From IMG/VR virus record IMGVR_UViG_2617270980_000005: a stretch of DNA of 5,563 nucleotides, one strand, 5' to 3'. The stretch is from a virus (Duplodnaviria > Heunggongvirae > Uroviricota > Caudoviricetes). The number at the start of each line of letters is the position of its first letter. The first letter of the stretch is position 1. The position numbers and the translations under genes were made by a program. A model generated the notes under the pieces. The model searched no databases, had not been told where the DNA came from, and was given only the letters and a program-made list of their open reading frames with translations. Positions 230 through 5,563 of this stretch are shown here, piece after piece.

Positions 230-283
230 CCTGTTTACCTCTTTCTCAGGGAGTTTAGTCTCCAGGATTTCCGGGGCGGTTCA
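1..283 (-). mobile_element. IS3-family insertion sequence (IS629/IS1203-like), partial; one terminus at 283, element continues beyond the window start
   Basis: Reverse complement of 231-283 reads TGAACCGCCCCGGAAATCCTGGAGACTAAACTCCCTGAGAAAGAGGTAAACAG, a TGA-initiated terminal inverted repeat typical of IS3-family ends, followed immediately by the orfA start. The encoded protein begins [76 protein letters not shown], which I recognise from memory as IS629/IS1203-type OrfA. Exact IS name not verified. Confidence 0.8.
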
Positions 284-459
284 GAGTTGTATACATCGCC
301 ACTGGCAACCAGCTCTCTGGCAAGAGCGCTCATCAGATATCTTGTCGCACCTGTCTTGGCTTCCAGTTGCCGTAACGTCTCACGACCGCTCTGGCGCACG
401 AGTTCCACCACCTGCCCTTTAATTTTTTCCCGCTCTTCTTGTGTAAAAACTTTTGCCAC
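284..459 (-). pseudogene. 5' portion (58 codons) of a phage gene downstream of the replication initiator, interrupted by the IS; the 74-aa ORF in the track is a fusion whose last ~15 residues are encoded by the IS terminus
   Basis: GTG start at 459-457 preceded by GGGGGA Shine-Dalgarno (AAGGGGGACTT GTG), 40 bp after the initiator stop. Native frame reads MAKVFTQEEREKIKGQVVELVRQSGRETLRQLEAKTGATRYLMSALARELVASGDVYN, then crosses the IS boundary at 283/284 and stops inside the IS inverted repeat. Identity of the native protein not recognised. Confidence 0.5.
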
Positions 460-499
460 AAGTCCCCCTTAAAATTACCTCATGACCTGAAATCAACAC

Positions 500-1465
500 T
501 TATCCCCTGAAACCAGGCGGAATTTCGGTATCCGGTTCAGAAATATGATTCACACAACGCTTTATTGGCGAACGCCCCAGGCGAATAACCAGCTCATCCC
601 ATTTTTCGCGAAGCTTTGACGGACTCATGATGTTTTTGACCCAGAATGGATCTCGCTGTACCCGACCAAACATTTCGCAAATTTGTCTGTGGCTTCTGCC
701 ATCCAGCATCCGCATTGTGCGCACGTCATTGGCCCAGGCAGTCCAGTTAGGCTCTTTTGGTCGCATGATCTCGCCATCATCACTGGCGGCCTGTTCGTAG
801 AGACCCACGATCCGCCCCCAGATCCACTGCGCACACGCCAAATCCTCCCTGCTACCCCACTGCCGTTTTTTCGCACTAAACACAACTGCGTCAGGGTGCC
901 GGATTAAAAAATCCTGTTCAGCCGTCTGCTGGTCCGGTTGCAAAGCTTCCGGACGAAAAGTGTTTTTATTCTCTGTAGTAATCTCTGTTGTATTCTCTGT
1001 AGGATCATCGGGCCATTTTGACCCGATGACATTGGGTCGTTTTGAACCAATGGAGCGTTTCATTTTGACCTCTTCCATCATGTCATTTTGACCTGATGGA
1101 GCGACGCATTTTGAACTGATGGATTCGCTCAATTTGCCACCATCTAAAAGATCGCTCCCATAGTTGATCGTGTAGAAATTGGTCATGTCGCGCTTTGATT
1201 TATTGAGCTTTTCGCAACGCAAAAGCCCCAGCGTTTTCAGACTTGCAAACGCGCGCTTTAACGTTGACTCTGACCAGAACGGGAACTGCGCCAGCCATTG
1301 TTCCGTTGTGTTGTAAATCCAGCGAACACCATCACATTCCATGCCGGAATTGGTATCTCTCAACCAGTAATGCAGTTGCTGCAACACAATGGCTTCGTTT
1401 AAGCCAATCTTCATCGCAAGCTGTGTGTTTATAACCAGTGGGCGTTCAGCAAAAAGAAGGCTCAT
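500..1465 (-). CDS. phage replication initiator / replisome organiser (lambda O-like role), 321 aa from ATG 1465; the track ORF extends to an upstream TTG at 1519
   Basis: Long minus-strand ORF in the position lambda O occupies (after cro-like and cII-position genes). It contains in-frame DNA iterons in the interdomain linker (…SIGSKRPNVIGSKWPDDPTENTTEITTENKNT…), a hallmark of O-type initiators whose origin lies inside the gene. Domain family not assigned from memory. Confidence 0.8.
   Translation of the reverse strand: MSLLFAERPLVINTQLAMKIGLNEAIVLQQLHYWLRDTNSGMECDGVRWIYNTTEQWLAQFPFWSESTLKRAFASLKTLGLLRCEKLNKSKRDMTNFYTINYGSDLLDGGKLSESISSKCVAPSGQNDMMEEVKMKRSIGSKRPNVIGSKWPDDPTENTTEITTENKNTFRPEALQPDQQTAEQDFLIRHPDAVVFSAKKRQWGSREDLACAQWIWGRIVGLYEQAASDDGEIMRPKEPNWTAWANDVRTMRMLDGRSHRQICEMFGRVQRDPFWVKNIMSPSKLREKWDELVIRLGRSPIKRCVNHISEPDTEIPPGFRG
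961..1125. repeat. candidate phage replication origin: five ~23-bp iterons (1009-1123) plus an adjacent AT-rich region with a 3x ~12-bp direct repeat (961-1008)
   Basis: Direct repeats with cores CATTTTGACC (1014), CGTTTTGAACC (1038), CATTTTGACC (1061), CATTTTGACC (1084), CATTTTGAAC (1107), spaced 23-24 bp. Several have inverted-repeat arms (ATCGGG..CCCGAT, CATTGG..CCAATG, CCATCA..TGATGG). Flanking 961-1008 is AT-rich with TCTCTGT(A/T)G three times. Confidence 0.65.
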
Positions 1466-1967
1466 AATTCCATCCAGCTTTTTGTTGGTATTGCTGTCGA
1501 TACGCAAGCTTGAAAGCAATTGCTTTTTCTATAAGTTCGTCAGTTTCACGATCTACAACGGCAGGATCTGCAAAAAGCAGTCCGGACTCCACCACATCGC
1601 CATATTCTTTATTTAACCCAGCGATCATGTACGTAATGCTCTTTCCGTCACTAATTTCACGATACAACCTGAAATCACTAATCCGGATAGCCTCCATAAT
1701 TGCAGGCACTAGCGCTGTGAACTTTTCACGCTTATCCCTGGTGTCGATAGCCTTCCAGCGTTCAAATATCTTCACTCGATTAACGCTAAGCGCTCGCTGA
1801 TCAACCGCGCCACCTTCATATGTGACACGCTGAACATCGATGTTCGGGCGCTCTTTCAAAGCCCAGAATGCTTCAGTGATTAATATCGTCGCCTGCTCCT
1901 GTGTCATTCCTGGTCGACATATCCAGGCATCCAGAGCCTCACGAGCCTGTTCAGGAGTGATTTTCAT
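1446..1967 (-). CDS. hypothetical prophage early protein, 173 aa, in the cII position between the cro-like gene and the replication initiator
   Basis: ATG at 1967-1965; overlaps the dicC 3' end by 17 bp and the initiator start by 20 bp (compact operon). Protein MKITPEQAREALDAWICRPGMTQEQATILITEAFWALKERPNIDVQRV… looks globular and charged-balanced. Likely the intact counterpart of the decayed ydfX/ydfW region of K-12 Qin (from memory, unverified). Confidence 0.7.
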   Translation of the reverse strand: MKITPEQAREALDAWICRPGMTQEQATILITEAFWALKERPNIDVQRVTYEGGAVDQRALSVNRVKIFERWKAIDTRDKREKFTALVPAIMEAIRISDFRLYREISDGKSITYMIAGLNKEYGDVVESGLLFADPAVVDRETDELIEKAIAFKLAYRQQYQQKAGWNYEPSFC

Positions 1968-2181
1968 TGTTCAACCGCCCCGCCCGCTTCGTCTTACGAT
2001 ATTCGTCATAAACTTTGGGATCATACTGAAGCTCCCCGCCAGATGCCTCCTGTAGACGCATCGCGCGACCTTCGGGAACTAAATCCCCTTTCCAGCTATA
2101 AAGCGAAGCCAAACGAATACCTGCTGCTTGTGCAAGTTTTGTTTTTGAACCGAAATACAAAAGAGCGTCAGTTTTAAGCAT
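1951..2181 (-). CDS. dicC: DicC, Cro-like HTH regulator of the Qin-type immunity switch (76 aa)
   Basis: ATG at 2181-2179 with AAGG 7-8 nt upstream on the minus strand; protein MLKTDALLYFGSKTKLAQAAGIRLASLYSWKGDLVPEGRAMRLQEASGG… matches remembered DicC; divergent from dicA. Confidence 0.9.
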   Translation of the reverse strand: MLKTDALLYFGSKTKLAQAAGIRLASLYSWKGDLVPEGRAMRLQEASGGELQYDPKVYDEYRKTKRAGRLNNENHS

Positions 2182-2264
2182 TTAAAACACCTTAGATGTT
2201 AGTCATGGCTAACAAAATAGATGTTAACAAAAACATAGTCAATACGATTTAGCATTAGCTAACT
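2182..2264. promoter_or_regulatory. divergent dicC/dicA promoter-operator region with three dyad-symmetric candidate operator sites
   Basis: Dyads TGTTAGtcatggCTAACA (2197-2214), ATGTTaacaaaAACAT (2221-2236), TTAGCattaGCTAA (2249-2262). Candidate PdicC on the minus strand: -35 TTGACT (complement of 2237-2242), 17-bp spacer, -10 TATTTT (complement of 2214-2219). The second dyad sits in the spacer and the first overlaps the -10/+1 region. Confidence 0.6.
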
Positions 2265-2672
2265 ATGGATACAAAAAATTTAACCATCGGCGAACGCATT
2301 AGGTATCGTCGGAAAAACCTCAAACACACCCAAAGGTCTCTTGCTAAAGCCCTGAAAATCTCCCATGTGTCTGTATCACAATGGGAACGGGATGATAGTG
2401 AACCTACAGGGAAGAACCTTTTTGCCCTCAGCAAAGTATTGCAATGCTCACCAACATGGATTCTATTTGGCGATGAAGACAAGCAACCAACACCACCTGT
2501 TGAGAAGCCGGTTGCCTTAGCCCCCAAAGAACTAGAGCTCCTTGAGCTGTTTAATGCACTGCCAGAATCAGAACAGGATACCCAGCTCGCCGAAATGCGA
2601 GCTCGAGTAAAAAATTTCAATAAACTCTTTGAAGAATTACTAAAAGCCCGTCAGCGGACAAATAAAAGATAA
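2265..2672 (+). CDS. dicA: DicA, XRE/CI-family HTH repressor of the dicB operon (135 aa)
   Basis: Protein MDTKNLTIGERIRYRRKNLKHTQRSLAKALKISHVSVSQWERDDSEPTGKNLFALSKVLQCSPTWILFGDEDKQ…KARQRTNKR matches remembered DicA essentially full length; N-terminal HTH; divergent from dicC. Confidence 0.95.
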   Translation: MDTKNLTIGERIRYRRKNLKHTQRSLAKALKISHVSVSQWERDDSEPTGKNLFALSKVLQCSPTWILFGDEDKQPTPPVEKPVALAPKELELLELFNALPESEQDTQLAEMRARVKNFNKLFEELLKARQRTNKR

Positions 2673-2700
2673 CATCATCAATGAGTTATCTTTTATTATA
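2664..2700 (+). terminator. weak candidate intrinsic terminator overlapping the dicA stop
   Basis: Inverted repeat AAAAGATAAC (2664-2673) / GTTATCTTTT (2685-2694) with an 11-nt loop, followed by ATTATAT. The stem is AT-rich, so termination efficiency is doubtful. Confidence 0.3.
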
Positions 2701-2706
2701 TCAATT

Positions 2707-2762
2707 ATGTTAGCCATAACATACAAAATCACTTGACCAATATGTTAGTTATGACTAATCTT
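2707..2762 (+). promoter_or_regulatory. candidate dicB-operon promoter (PdicB) with two operator-like dyads
   Basis: -35 TTGACC (2734-2739), 16-bp spacer, -10 TAATCT (2756-2761). Dyads ATGTTAgccaTAACAT (2707-2722) and TTAGTtatgACTAA (2745-2758) share half-sites with the dicA/dicC intergenic dyads; the second lies between -35 and -10. Confidence 0.55.
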
Positions 2763-2838
2763 GTTTACATCAACACACCGCACGGTGTTCTCAGCAAACA
2801 GTTCCGCCACCCCGGCGTTAAGGGGAAATGAGGTCAGC

Positions 2839-2994
2839 ATGGATACTATCGATCTTGGCAACAGCGAATCTCTGGTATGTGGCGTGTTCCCCAATCAGGA
2901 CGGCACGTTCACCGCGATGACGTATACCAAAAGCAAAACGTTTAAAACCGAAAATGGTGCCCGTCGCTGGCTGGAAAGAAACTCAGGTGAGTGA
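2839..2994 (+). CDS. ydfA: YdfA-like small protein (51 aa), first gene of the dicB operon
   Basis: ATG 2839 preceded by GAGG (AAATGAGGTCAGC ATG); protein MDTIDLGNSESLVCGVFPNQDGTFTAMTYTKSKTFKTENGARRWLERNSGE matches remembered YdfA length and sequence. The track ORF start at 2761 is an upstream in-frame TTG without RBS. Confidence 0.85.
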   Translation: MDTIDLGNSESLVCGVFPNQDGTFTAMTYTKSKTFKTENGARRWLERNSGE

Positions 2995-2995
2995 T

Positions 2996-3571
2996 ATGGA
3001 TTTCGACACAATCATGGAAAAGGCTTACGAAGAATACTTCGAAGGCCTTGCCGAAGGCGAAGAAGCTCTCAGCTTCAGTGAGTTTAAACAGGCACTCAGA
3101 ATAAGAATGTGCTCTCACAATGACGCGGAGCACAAATATGAGAAGCAAAATCAGACCGCAGAAAATTTTGTTCTGGAACCCGGAGAAACGCTTTTCAAAA
3201 TTCCCGTTACGTGCCCCATTTGCGGTTTTACATCAGAAGAACTTGACGACTCCTGTAACAATCAGGAAACAACCAAGTATGTCGAAGATGATACCGAGTG
3301 CGCACGAAGAACGATTATATCCACGAGTCCAAACTCCAGGACCAATAAATCTCACCTTGAGAGGGTAATTAATCCACTCCCCCAAACCAATAAAAAAGAT
3401 GCCGGAGGACAAAAAACCCAATGGAACAACGGGATATCTGTCAAAAAAAGACGTTCCATTAAAGACAAACAACGCAGCGCCAACAACTGTAAGCGCTTTA
3501 TACCAGTAATCAATTTTCATGTTCTTAAGCGGATTTATTGGTGGTTGCGACATTGCTTAATGAATCCTTAA
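2996..3571 (+). CDS. ydfB: YdfB-like protein, here as an extended 191-codon frame (acidic N-terminal region, CPICG..C motif); 3' extent uncertain
   Basis: ATG 2996 with AGGTGAG Shine-Dalgarno, start coupled to the ydfA stop (TGAtATG). N-terminal ~105 aa look protein-like (MDFDTIMEKAYEEYFEGLAEGEEALSFSEFKQAL…VTCPICGFTSEELDDSC…). The C-terminal half is low-complexity K/N/R/S-rich with rare Arg/Ile codons and is overlapped by an alternative + frame (3138-3368) and a minus-strand ORF (3233-3553), so the true coding end is unresolved. Confidence 0.5.
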   Translation: MDFDTIMEKAYEEYFEGLAEGEEALSFSEFKQALRIRMCSHNDAEHKYEKQNQTAENFVLEPGETLFKIPVTCPICGFTSEELDDSCNNQETTKYVEDDTECARRTIISTSPNSRTNKSHLERVINPLPQTNKKDAGGQKTQWNNGISVKKRRSIKDKQRSANNCKRFIPVINFHVLKRIYWWLRHCLMNP

Positions 3572-3830
3572 AACTGTGGTGATTTTAAGGATACCACCTC
3601 GCCTGACGTGGTTAAAAGCAGGCACACAACACGAAAGCGCACGGCGAAGTTCGTCTCACTGTACGGTGTCGTTAAATTTAATTCGACCGTGCGCTTCCGG
3701 TTGTGGCAACCCGCGAAATGGCGCGGCGGTAAGTATGGCGGGGTTATTCCTTCCCCGTTGAGGACACCGAGTTGTCAGGTTGACCATACGCTTAAGTGAC
3801 AACCCCGCTGCAACGCCCTCTGTTATCAAT

Positions 3831-3883
3831 TTTCTGGTGACGTTTGGCGGTATCAGTTTTACTCCGTGACTGCTCTGCCGCCG
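3831..3883 (+). ncRNA. dicF: DicF small regulatory RNA (about 53 nt)
   Basis: TTTCTGGTGACGTTTGGCGGTATCAGTTTTACTCCGTGACTGCTCTGCCGCCG matches the remembered DicF sequence nearly base for base; located between the ydfB/ydfC region and dicB as in the Qin dicB operon; followed by a T5 run. Confidence 0.9.
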
Positions 3884-3888
3884 TTTTT
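3846..3888 (+). terminator. candidate intrinsic terminator forming the DicF 3' end
   Basis: GGCGG (3846-3850) pairs with CCGCC (3878-3882) enclosing an inner CAGT/ACTG helix, followed by GTTTTT (3883-3888). The stem is imperfect, hence moderate confidence. Confidence 0.45.
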
Positions 3889-4057
3889 AAAGTGAATTTT
3901 GTGATGCGGTGAATGCGGCTAAGCGCACGCGGAACAGTTAAAACCAAATACAGTGTTATGGGTGGATTCTCTGTATCCGGCGTTAATTGTTAACTGGTTA
4001 ACGTCACCTGGAGGCACCAGGCACTGCATCACAAAATTCATTGTTGAGGACGCGATA

Positions 4058-4246
4058 ATGAAAACGTTATTACCAAACGTTAATACGTCTGAAGGTTGTT
4101 TTGAAATTGGTGTCACTATCAGTAACCCTGTATTTACTGAAGATGCCATTAACAAGAGAAAACAAGAACGGGAGCTATTAAATAAAATATGCATTGTTTC
4201 AATGCTGGCTCGTTTACGTCTGATGCCAAAAGGATGTGCACAATGA
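4058..4246 (+). CDS. dicB: DicB, cell-division inhibitor (62 aa)
   Basis: ATG 4058 with GAGGA 9 nt upstream; protein MKTLLPNVNTSEGCFEIGVTISNPVFTEDAINKRKQERELLNKICIVSMLARLRLMPKGCAQ matches remembered DicB. The longer 97-aa track ORF (3953) is an in-frame 5' extension without RBS. Confidence 0.95.
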   Translation: MKTLLPNVNTSEGCFEIGVTISNPVFTEDAINKRKQERELLNKICIVSMLARLRLMPKGCAQ

Positions 4247-4434
4247 ATTCAGCATTTGCGCTTGTTCTGACAGTTTTTCTTGTTTCCGGAGAGCCAGTTG
4301 ATATTGCAGTCAGTGTTCACAGGACAATGCAGGAGTGTATGACTGCAGCAACCGAACAGAAAATTCCCGGTAACTGTTACCCGGTCGATAAAGTTATTCA
4401 CCAGGATAATATCGAAATCCCGGCAGGTCTTTAA
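4243..4434 (+). CDS. ydfD: YdfD, small prophage lysis protein with N-terminal hydrophobic segment (63 aa)
   Basis: ATG 4243 overlaps the dicB stop (ATGA); AAGGA 9 nt upstream; protein MNSAFALVLTVFLVSGEPVDIAVSVHRTMQECMTAATEQKIPGNCYPVDKVIHQDNIEIPAGL. Confidence 0.9.
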   Translation: MNSAFALVLTVFLVSGEPVDIAVSVHRTMQECMTAATEQKIPGNCYPVDKVIHQDNIEIPAGL

Positions 4435-4527
4435 AACAGTTCCGTAATAAATATCCGGTTTCATTCTTATATGCCAGCAATGGCAGGGATTTGTTCATCC
4501 TTAAATCTGTCATGAGGTTAAAACAAA

Positions 4528-5563
4528 ATGAGTAAAGTCTTTATTTGCGCCGCTATTCCTGACGAACTGGCAACAAGGGAAGAAGGCGCTGTGGCTGTAG
4601 CCACAGCCATTGAAGCTGGCGACGAACGCCGTGCTCGAGCAAAATTTCACTGGCAGTTCCTGGAACATTATCCGGCTGCTCAGGACTGCGCTTATAAATT
4701 TATTGTCTGCGAGGATAAACCTGGCATACCCCGCCCTGCCCTCGATTCATGGGATGCTGAATATATGCAGGAAAACCGCTGGGATGAGGAGTCTGCTTCT
4801 TTTGTCCCGGTTGAGACTGAATCCGATCCGATGAACGTCACTTTTGACAAGCTGGCCCCTGAAGTACAGAACGCTGTCATGGTTAAGTTCGACACATGTG
4901 AAAACATCACCGTTGATATGGTTATTAGCGCACAGGAATTGTTGCAGGAAGACATGGCAACATTCGACGGACATATCGTTGAAGCGTTGATGAAAATGCC
5001 AGAAGTTAACGCCATGTATCCGGAGCTTAAGTTGCACGCCATTGGGTGGGTTAAGCATAAATGTATTCCTGGTGCTAAATGGCCCGAAATTCAGGCAGAG
5101 ATGCGCATCTGGAAAAAACGTCGCGAAGGTGAACGCAAGGAAACCGGAAAATACACGTCTGTTGTTGATCTCGCCCGCGCCAAAGCCAATCAACAGTACA
5201 CTGAAAATTCAACAGGAAAAATCAGCCCGGTCATTGCTGCCATTCATCGCGAATACAAGCAGACATGGAAAACACTGGATGACGAACTGGCCTACGCTCT
5301 CTGGCCTGGTGATGTAGATGCCGGAAACATTGACAGCAGCATCCATCGCTGGGCAAAAAATGAAGTTATCGACAACGACCGCGAAGACTGGAAGCGTATC
5401 TCGGCATCAATGCGCAAACAGCCTGATGCCCTTCGCTACGACCGCCAGACTATTTTTGGCCTTGTCCGTGAACGTCCGATCGACATTCACAAAGACCCTG
5501 TGGCACTGAACAAATACATTACTGAATACCTGACTACAAAGGGCGTGTTTGAAGATGAAGGAA
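4528..5563 (+). CDS. ydfE: YdfE-like prophage protein, at least 345 aa, 3' end beyond the window; function unknown
   Basis: ATG 4528 with GAGG upstream (CATGAGGTTAAAACAAA ATG). I translated the frame codon by codon to position 5563 with no stop (MSKVFICAAIPDELATREEGAVAVATAIEAGDERRARAKFHWQFLEHYPAAQDCAYKF…KGVFEDEG). It is missing from the ORF track only because it has no stop in the window. N-terminus matches what I recall of YdfE. Confidence 0.85.
   Translation, partial: MSKVFICAAIPDELATREEGAVAVATAIEAGDERRARAKFHWQFLEHYPAAQDCAYKFIVCEDKPGIPRPALDSWDAEYMQENRWDEESASFVPVETESDPMNVTFDKLAPEVQNAVMVKFDTCENITVDMVISAQELLQEDMATFDGHIVEALMKMPEVNAMYPELKLHAIGWVKHKCIPGAKWPEIQAEMRIWKKRREGERKETGKYTSVVDLARAKANQQYTENSTGKISPVIAAIHREYKQTWKTLDDELAYALWPGDVDAGNIDSSIHRWAKNEVIDNDREDWKRISASMRKQPDALRYDRQTIFGLVRERPIDIHKDPVALNKYITEYLTTKGVFEDEG

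Follow-up and report, generated by a model that had tools for sequence, protein, structure and literature searches.

The DNA analysed here is a stretch of 5,563 nucleotides (the window) from the virus record IMGVR_UViG_2617270980_000005 (IMG/VR; Caudoviricetes), which represents the immunity and early-right region of a Qin/Kim-type (Qin/mEp460-type) lambdoid prophage of Escherichia coli. As judged from sequence comparison, positions 966-1144 of the window are very probably the replication origin of this prophage type, located inside its own initiator gene, in the part that encodes the linker. The region consists of six 23-bp direct repeats (iterons) followed by three tandem 12-bp repeats (12-mers), which together occupy codons 108-167 of the 321-codon gene, between its two domains. 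Evidence comes from the repeats, their phasing and placement, from domain homologies and fold of the initiator, from selection at DNA level and from conservation of the cassette together with the N-domain family. The elements of the gene are listed below.

500..1465, minus strand: O-like replication initiator gene, 321 amino acids (aa), containing the origin (from the list of open reading frames (ORFs); stop codon at 500-502)
1136..1465, minus strand: N-terminal domain, a winged helix of residues 1-110, presumed to bind the iterons
1122..1144: degenerate iteron 6 (coding strand ..GGCAAATTGAGCG..), which keeps the register of the array at 23 bp from iteron 5
1099..1121: iteron 5, coding strand CATCAGTTCAAAATGCGTCGCTC, right arm degenerate
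1076..1098: iteron 4, palindromic, CATCAGGTCAAAATGACATGATG, 12-nt inverted arms, 92% complementary; pattern match
1053..1075: iteron 3, GAAGAGGTCAAAATGAAACGCTC, degenerate arms
1030..1052: iteron 2, palindromic, CATTGGTTCAAAACGACCCAATG, inverted arms 89% complementary; pattern match
1006..1028: iteron 1, palindromic, CATCGGGTCAAAATGGCCCGATG, closest to the 12-mers, 11-nt inverted arms, 91% complementary; fits the family consensus GAWNRGGNCAAAWTGNCCYNATC
1001 to 966, in this direction: three tandem 12-mers, coding strand TACAGAGAATAC / AACAGAGATTAC / TACAGAGAATAA, register conserved in relatives; presumed unwinding and loading element
584..919, minus strand: C-terminal domain, aa 183-294, homologous to the lambda O C-domain (tblastn, 39% identity, E 7e-18)
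503..565, minus strand: C-terminal tail, aa 301-321, IKRCVNHISEPDTEIPPGFRG, matching NCBIfam DnaT positions 159-179 and PDB chains 2ru8 and 9zbt

Iterons and 12-mers in the window

The pattern CRTTTTGAMC occurs exactly at positions 1014, 1038, 1061, 1084 and 1107 of the plus strand and has no other match in the 5563 bases. By chance 0.12 matches are expected, and five matches were reached in none of 200 shuffled sequences. Cores are spaced by 24, 23, 23 and 23 bp. The original prediction, made from the sequence alone, had described five direct repeats with these very cores and 23-24 bp phasing, and they are fully confirmed. The extent that it proposed, 961-1125, encloses all five cores but is too short, as a degenerate sixth iteron (core CAATTTG at 1130, unit 1122-1144) prolongs the array to 1144. 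The core of this copy, CAAATTG on the coding strand, was counted in phage PhiR42_1 (96% identical).

The natural unit of the array is an abutting 23-mer (1006-1028, 1030-1052, 1053-1075, 1076-1098 and 1099-1121 for the five exact copies). Inverted-repeat arms had been predicted for several repeats. Strong dyad symmetry is in fact restricted to units 1006-1028, 1030-1052 and 1076-1098, whose arms are 89-92% complementary; the other three have kept the core while their arms are degenerate. Iteron pairs 5+4 and 3+2 form a 46-bp super-repeat (1053-1144) with ..CGCTCCAT.. common to both, and the array probably grew through duplication of a two-iteron unit. No second iteron cluster was found in the window, and search for DnaA boxes gave a single weak match, at 440, outside the origin.

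Transcription reaches the iterons first and then the 12-mer block, and both lie inside ORF 500-1465 of the minus strand, exactly as predicted. The 12-bp tandem was detected by TRF at 970-1002 (2.8 copies). GC content reaches its minimum for the gene in 960-999 (32.5%), with AT skew of -0.63, i.e. strong excess of T on the plus strand. Of all 40-bp duplexes in the gene (966 bp), the least stable falls in this block: its nearest-neighbour free energy (dG) is -44.6 kcal/mol, rank 1 of 926, compared with a gene-wide mean of -55.2 (standard deviation 3.4). The block had been taken for an AT-rich triple repeat serving as unwinding element. Three tandem units at the stability minimum of the gene agree with this description; however, AT-richness is moderate, and conservation of the specific sequence indicates more than mere AT-rich DNA.

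Selection at the DNA level

Each of the three codon phases is used for the iteron core TCAAAATG, which yields SKC, QND, VKM, SKR and SKW, and with a period of 23 bp an in-frame protein repeat is impossible. Polymorphism was examined in 50 distinct alleles of the E. coli clade. An N-domain scan of viral contigs had retrieved only relatives 94-99% identical, a set suited to polymorphism and not to divergence, which was studied in the genome collection. In the N-domain, 27 of 107 third codon positions are variable versus 6 of 214 first and second positions, which is the pattern of ordinary protein constraint. The iteron region shows the reverse, with 18 of 93 sites variable at codon positions 1 and 2 versus 4 of 46 at position 3. 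The least variable part of the gene is the 12-mer block (3 of 45 sites).

Synonymous sites of the 12-mer are fixed also in diverged loci. Among 82 T-E-x-T units defined there at the protein level, Glu is encoded by GAG in all 82 (46% in the remainder of these genes) and Thr by ACA or ACT in 99% (51% in the remainder), and the third codon is always ANT. Further, in several relatives from Bacillus and Neobacillus the initiator gene has no internal cassette; repeats resembling the iterons, and after them units resembling the 12-mer, occupy intergenic DNA outside credible ORFs, 150-400 bp upstream of this gene. In the gene downstream of these cassettes, the N-domain runs directly into a Phg_2220_C domain. 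The intergenic cassettes are located as follows.

Locus L159: 1104-1255
Locus L132: about 1250-1335
Locus L135: about 1245-1335

Three codon phases, reversed codon-position polymorphism, fixed synonymous sites and intergenic cassettes together argue strongly that selection acts on the DNA of iterons and 12-mers, and the idea that the repeat is selected as DNA, already part of the original prediction, is well borne out.

Conservation of the cassette in diverged homologues

Scan of one genome per species for the N-domain gave 80 loci. After addition of phage loci L006 and L007, 76 homologues with less than 70% identity to the window were available, from Enterobacterales, Pseudomonas, Acinetobacter, Bacillus, Staphylococcus, Lactobacillales and other hosts among Proteobacteria and Firmicutes. 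Directly after the N-domain they carry a cassette of 22-24 bp palindromic iterons with co-varying arms, followed by 2-5 copies of ACAGAGAnTAC. Periodicity predicted from the window is thus present in homologues: of the steps between successive CANNNTG cores after the N-domain, 63% measure 22-24 bp and another 12% measure 45-47 bp, versus 2% at 22-24 bp in the flanks. The consensus of the 23-mer is GAWNRGGNCAAAWTGNCCYNATC.

Complementarity of the arms exceeds the expectation from column composition at positions +-4 (0.69 vs 0.30), +-5 (0.64 vs 0.39) and +-8 (0.46 vs 0.25), which is the pattern that a dimer reading the palindrome would impose. Both arms change together in variants such as GGTCA..TGACC, GGGCAA.TTGCCC, GGACAA.TTGTCC and GATCA..TGATC. 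ACAGAGA reaches a density of 4.7 per kb in the cassette region, compared to 0.03 per kb per strand in the flanks. When the window is added to the 76 homologues, 52 of 77 loci have two or more iterons together with two or more 12-mers, and 9 have neither element. The gap between the last iteron and the 12-mers is 10-13 bp in most loci, and the polarity is always the same.

Initiators with a related C-domain and another type of N-domain carry another repeat at the same place. This is ATCCCTCAAAACGAGGGA in lambda and a 15-bp GTCAAAATCTGACCC repeat in 720R4 and KpF5, whose C-domain is lambda-O-like. Repeat sequence hence tracks the N-domain while position is constant, as expected for pairs of initiator and iteron.

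Distribution of the 12-mer

Viral contigs were also scanned for two tandem 12-mer units, and at least 120 loci (L169-L288) were found. Among the matches listed, the window-type N-domain is encoded just upstream on the same strand in 71 and is not detected by its hidden Markov model (HMM) in 49. The 12-mer was at one point considered specific to the N-domain of the window, and this view was dropped in light of the 49 loci. In nearly all of them the tandem is located in the middle of an ORF, in the same frame, directly after a different iteron array, for example GGGAAACCCnTTTCGGGAAA, AACTTAACAATGGAAAGTTAAG, GTACCACCCTCCTACGTT or GATTCAGGGAAAGTCAGAATCTA. Loci L252, L261, L260, L172, L180 and L212 exemplify a tandem following such unrelated-looking iterons, in genes whose N-domain is a remote relative of the window's or shows no detectable relationship to it. 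Most N-terminal parts in the 49 loci are remote homologues.

N-terminal parts of the listed proteins fall into three BLAST clusters and C-terminal parts into fifteen, and the modal number of tandem units is three. The largest second N cluster (..GNVxPxNWW..LLSEIVYWYRP..) is a remote homologue of the window's N-domain (hhalign probability 90%, E 1.4e-6). C-domains joined to the cassette are of lambda-O-like, DnaB_2 and Phg_2220_C types. The 12-mers are absent from lambda, 720R4 and KpF5, which share C-domain and host and have other N-domain types. In this small sample the 12-mer thus appears to track the winged-helix superfamily rather than C-domain or host. From E. coli phages to those of Staphylococcus its sequence is conserved to the letter, and it adjoins, on the downstream side, at least dozens of iteron specificities, in Gram-positive as well as Gram-negative hosts and in genic as well as intergenic DNA.

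On these grounds we put forward, tentatively and at somewhat less than even confidence, that ACAGAGAnTAC, usually in three tandem copies, is a sequence-specific origin element deeply conserved in a large superfamily of winged-helix initiators from phages and prophages, most of it unannotated. Candidates for its reader are the initiator itself, which might contact one strand of the opened DNA through a conserved surface, a universal component of the replisome, or none, if the tandem is a recombination linker. Neither the 12-mer tandem nor an origin of the window's type was found described in the searchable literature; the main review of phage replication modules lay outside this search, and prior description is possible.

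The recombination linker is a separate explanation. The tandem would then be a patch of homology at a module boundary, by which N-domains with their iterons are exchanged against C-domains, and would play no part in initiation, unwinding being due to generic low stability. Its position exactly at the N/C module junction agrees with this, as does the joining of one N cluster to 13 C-domain clusters among the matches listed, lambda-O-like, DnaB_2 and Phg_2220_C included. Moreover, lambda, 720R4 and KpF5 initiate without the 12-mer. On the other hand, intergenic cassettes keep 12-mer-like units beside iterons where no domain junction exists, and the modal three units and fixed spacing to the last iteron suggest that the tandem has a role in structure or binding. 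Benefit of recombination alone would also hardly maintain elements that are identical in nucleotide sequence in Staphylococcus and E. coli. We regard a mere exchange patch as unlikely.

The initiator protein

The gene is called 'phage replication protein O' by PGAP in an identical prophage and matches phrog_391 'replication initiation O-like' (E 4.5e-91). Only PHROGs named the protein; no Pfam family was found at E<=0.01 and no NCBIfam domain was named. Its N-domain is a winged helix of DnaD/RepA_N-like type, not lambda-like, and the top structural match is pSK41 Rep. Residues 1-110 match phage proteins from Klebsiella, Erwinia, Pseudomonas, Staphylococcus, Bacillus, Listeria and Vibrio at 34-74% identity. 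They give no alignment to the N-terminal part of lambda O and no hit to PF04492 (Phage_rep_O), and the tblastn match to lambda covers aa 183-294 only. The C-terminal part is matched by PHROG profiles 'DnaD-like helicase loader' at aa 188-299 (E 6e-25) and by DnaD-like proteins of Bacillus phages at aa 237-294 (50%); Pfam DnaB_2 has no match in the window's initiator.

The last 20 residues, KRCVNHISEPDTEIPPGFRG, are identical with the C-terminus of E. coli DnaT at 15 of 20 positions. Some phage records name the initiator 'Primosomal protein I' because of this match. The same kind of tail (IPAGFRG) also terminates initiators with other N-domains (720R4; locus L256). Removal of residues 154-179 from DnaT weakens its cooperative binding of single-stranded DNA (PMC4132743). 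The contact partner of the extreme DnaT tail is not stated in the 2026 preprimosome paper, and the literature searched held nothing specific on phage initiators with a DnaT tail. Through the tail, phages without a loader may reach the restart machinery of the host or the opened strand.

No loader gene of P, DnaC or DnaB type follows the initiator in prophages free of the insertion sequence (IS) discussed below, in PhiR42_1 or in mEp460. In intact relatives the next gene is DUF977/LygF, after which come unrelated genes (AAA_13 ATPase or methyltransferase). The corresponding regions are these.

Locus L001: 3258-6178, downstream region without loader
Locus L003: 5007-5782, downstream region without loader
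Locus L168: 5007-5408, downstream region without loader

The ATPase downstream in IS-free prophages was considered as a replicative helicase and rejected, as it is an AAA_13 protein absent from PhiR42_1 and mEp460; we take it to be a defence-type gene.

Proposed mechanism and its weighing

Dimers of the N-terminal winged helix would bind the palindromic 23-bp iterons, six in number, three of them strong, each with a central A-tract and phased by about two helical turns. Bound iterons would be wrapped into a nucleoprotein complex resembling the lambda O-some. Stress from this complex, together with read-through transcription from the promoter on the dicC side, would open the adjacent three 12-mers, the least stable DNA of the gene. 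Comparative evidence for an O-some-like complex that opens the 12-mers is strong. Host DnaB helicase might then be loaded at the opened block via the lambda-O-like C-domain and the DnaT-like tail, a route that we propose because the phage lacks a loader of its own. This last step is conjecture, since intact relatives have no loader gene.

Several points weigh against the origin so understood. Three iterons out of six fall short of a good palindrome, and the 12-mer block, at about 68% AT, is less extreme than the unwinding region of lambda. Absence of a helicase loader gene from intact relatives has to be counted here as well. In the window, a copy of IS1203 truncates the gene next to the initiator (DUF977), and this interrupted prophage copy may itself be devoid of replication ability. 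Finally, protein binding, unwinding, helicase loading and origin activity are all things we infer.

Iterons could instead be regulatory sites of the initiator, serving autorepression, copy control by handcuffing or superinfection exclusion, with initiation taking place elsewhere. Iterons of plasmids commonly double as control elements, and many carriers of the cassette are cryptic prophages (Qin-like; 874 genomes). Cloned lambda ori/O segments are reported to produce a replication-inhibition phenotype (PMC3349717). Against purely regulatory sites speaks that iterons are always coupled to low-stability 12-mers at a fixed distance (mostly 10-13 bp) and in one polarity, which is the architecture of an opening site. 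In addition, the cassette is retained in phages deposited as complete genomes, and the window has no second iteron cluster. We consider this explanation very unlikely.

That the repeats are a functionless by-product of a repetitive, low-complexity protein linker, arisen by tandem duplication of coding sequence, is hardly credible: the region does encode a hydrophilic linker between two folded domains, and the 12-mer is in frame ACA-GAG in 106 of 108 occurrences, giving T-E-x-T repeats, but the 23-bp period with the core read in three phases, fixed synonymous 12-mer sites, greater variability at codon positions 1+2 than 3 and presence of the cassette in non-coding DNA (L159, L132, L135) all contradict it.

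Comparison with known systems

Placement of an origin inside the initiator gene is a known and expected layout, represented by ori-lambda and pSK41 Rep, and the window adds another probable example. The likeness to ori-lambda asserted by the original prediction, iterons and unwinding block inside the initiator gene, holds for both position and polarity of the annotated lambda origin. In either case the origin is located at the N/C junction, with codon 108 here and codon 117 of 299 in lambda O as the start of the iterons. Both have dyad-symmetric iterons with a central CAAAA-type A-tract (lambda spacing is 20, 24 and 23 bp) and, directly downstream, an easily melted block that is purine-rich on the coding strand. 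The C-terminal domains are homologous, and in both phages the immunity region is followed by a cro-like gene, a cII-like gene and the initiator.

The lambda-style reading is supported for layout and C-domain, but not for the DNA-binding domain or a P-type loader. The N-terminal DNA-binding domain of the window belongs to another family (no PF04492). Six iterons of 23 bp are present here as opposed to four of 18-19 bp in lambda, and a specific 12-mer in three copies stands in place of a generic A-rich run. The window type lacks a P-type loader gene, and a DnaT-like tail replaces the C-terminus of lambda O.

Plasmid initiators of the RepA_N group, pSK41 and pTZ2162 Rep, are similar in their DnaD-like winged-helix N-domain and in having repeats in the centre of the gene with an origin-encoded linker; for the window, binding of these repeats is presumed. 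The N-terminal domain of pSK41 Rep binds four Rep boxes located centrally in its own gene, and the origin-encoded linker is dispensable for the protein (PMC5703833). They differ in that the window's initiator has no sequence match to Pfam RepA_N and resides in a phage or prophage rather than a plasmid. In the literature consulted on these plasmids, no ACAGAGAnTAC tandem is reported. Cellular DnaD, of the DnaD/DnaB-type primosomal proteins, has no cognate iterons, unlike the initiator of the window. By description, a related class are the phage 'replisome organizers', e.g. SPP1 G38P with oriL in gene 38.

Prophage context

Bases 282-5563 are 98-100% identical to many complete genomes by megablast, and at least 80% of the window is present in 874 of 5426 complete E. 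coli genomes, about one in six. The whole window in one piece was found in no complete E. coli genome of the collection. The initiator gene belongs to a lambdoid prophage of the chromosome, with the immunity genes dicC/dicA on one side and late genes on the other. In an identical IS-free prophage copy the annotated order is dicA, dicC, a YdaT/cII-like gene, 'phage replication protein O', DUF977 and AAA ATPase, with ydfA, dicB, ydfD and an exonuclease on the other flank. Initiator gene and origin of the window are 100% identical to those of IS-free prophages, and the gene occurs at 96-98% identity in deposited phages PhiR42_1 and mEp460. Remaining features of the window are listed here.

1-283: end of IS1203 (IS3 family), inserted in the DUF977 gene
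235-459, minus strand: truncated DUF977 gene, 59 of 142 codons kept, reading on into IS1203
3233-3553, minus strand: ORF of 106 aa, hydrophobic and membrane-like, opposite the ydfB/ydfC region
3832-3883, plus strand: DicF small RNA (Rfam, 72.5 bits)
4058-4246 and 4243-4434: dicB and ydfD, following DicF

The 106-aa ORF has no match in Pfam, NCBIfam or PHROGs and is missing from the PGAP annotation of the identical prophage. The Qin cell-division inhibitor operon (DicF, dicB, ydfD) is intact in the window.

Some assemblies encountered in the scans are of doubtful origin. Contigs of L089, L090, L131, L139, L147 and L151 are probably mis-binned or contaminant. Initiator genes of E. coli type (96-100% identical) were found in metagenome-assembled genomes labelled Veillonella, Bacillota and Collinsella, and a 'Micrarchaeota' metagenome-assembled genome contains a phage-like contig. 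Assemblies labelled Nocardioides and Micromonospora share an identical 41,200-bp contig of low GC, resembling Staphylococcus phages.

Significance

The analysis provides exact origin coordinates for a prophage type carried by about one in six complete E. coli genomes. The origin-in-initiator-gene design of lambda and of staphylococcal RepA_N plasmids appears common to one winged-helix superfamily across bacterial phyla. In this superfamily a fast-evolving specificity element, the iterons, is separated from an invariant opening or loading element, the 12-mer, which offers a handle on how initiators melt DNA and bears on recruitment of helicase where the phage apparently brings no loader. Here the DnaT-like tail points to the restart machinery of the host as a route that can be tested. 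If the 12-mer is indeed a conserved origin element, it would be a duplex-opening site, one strand of which is read by the initiator or by a universal part of the replisome, and its role would be comparable to that of the DnaA-trio or 13-mer elements of oriC.

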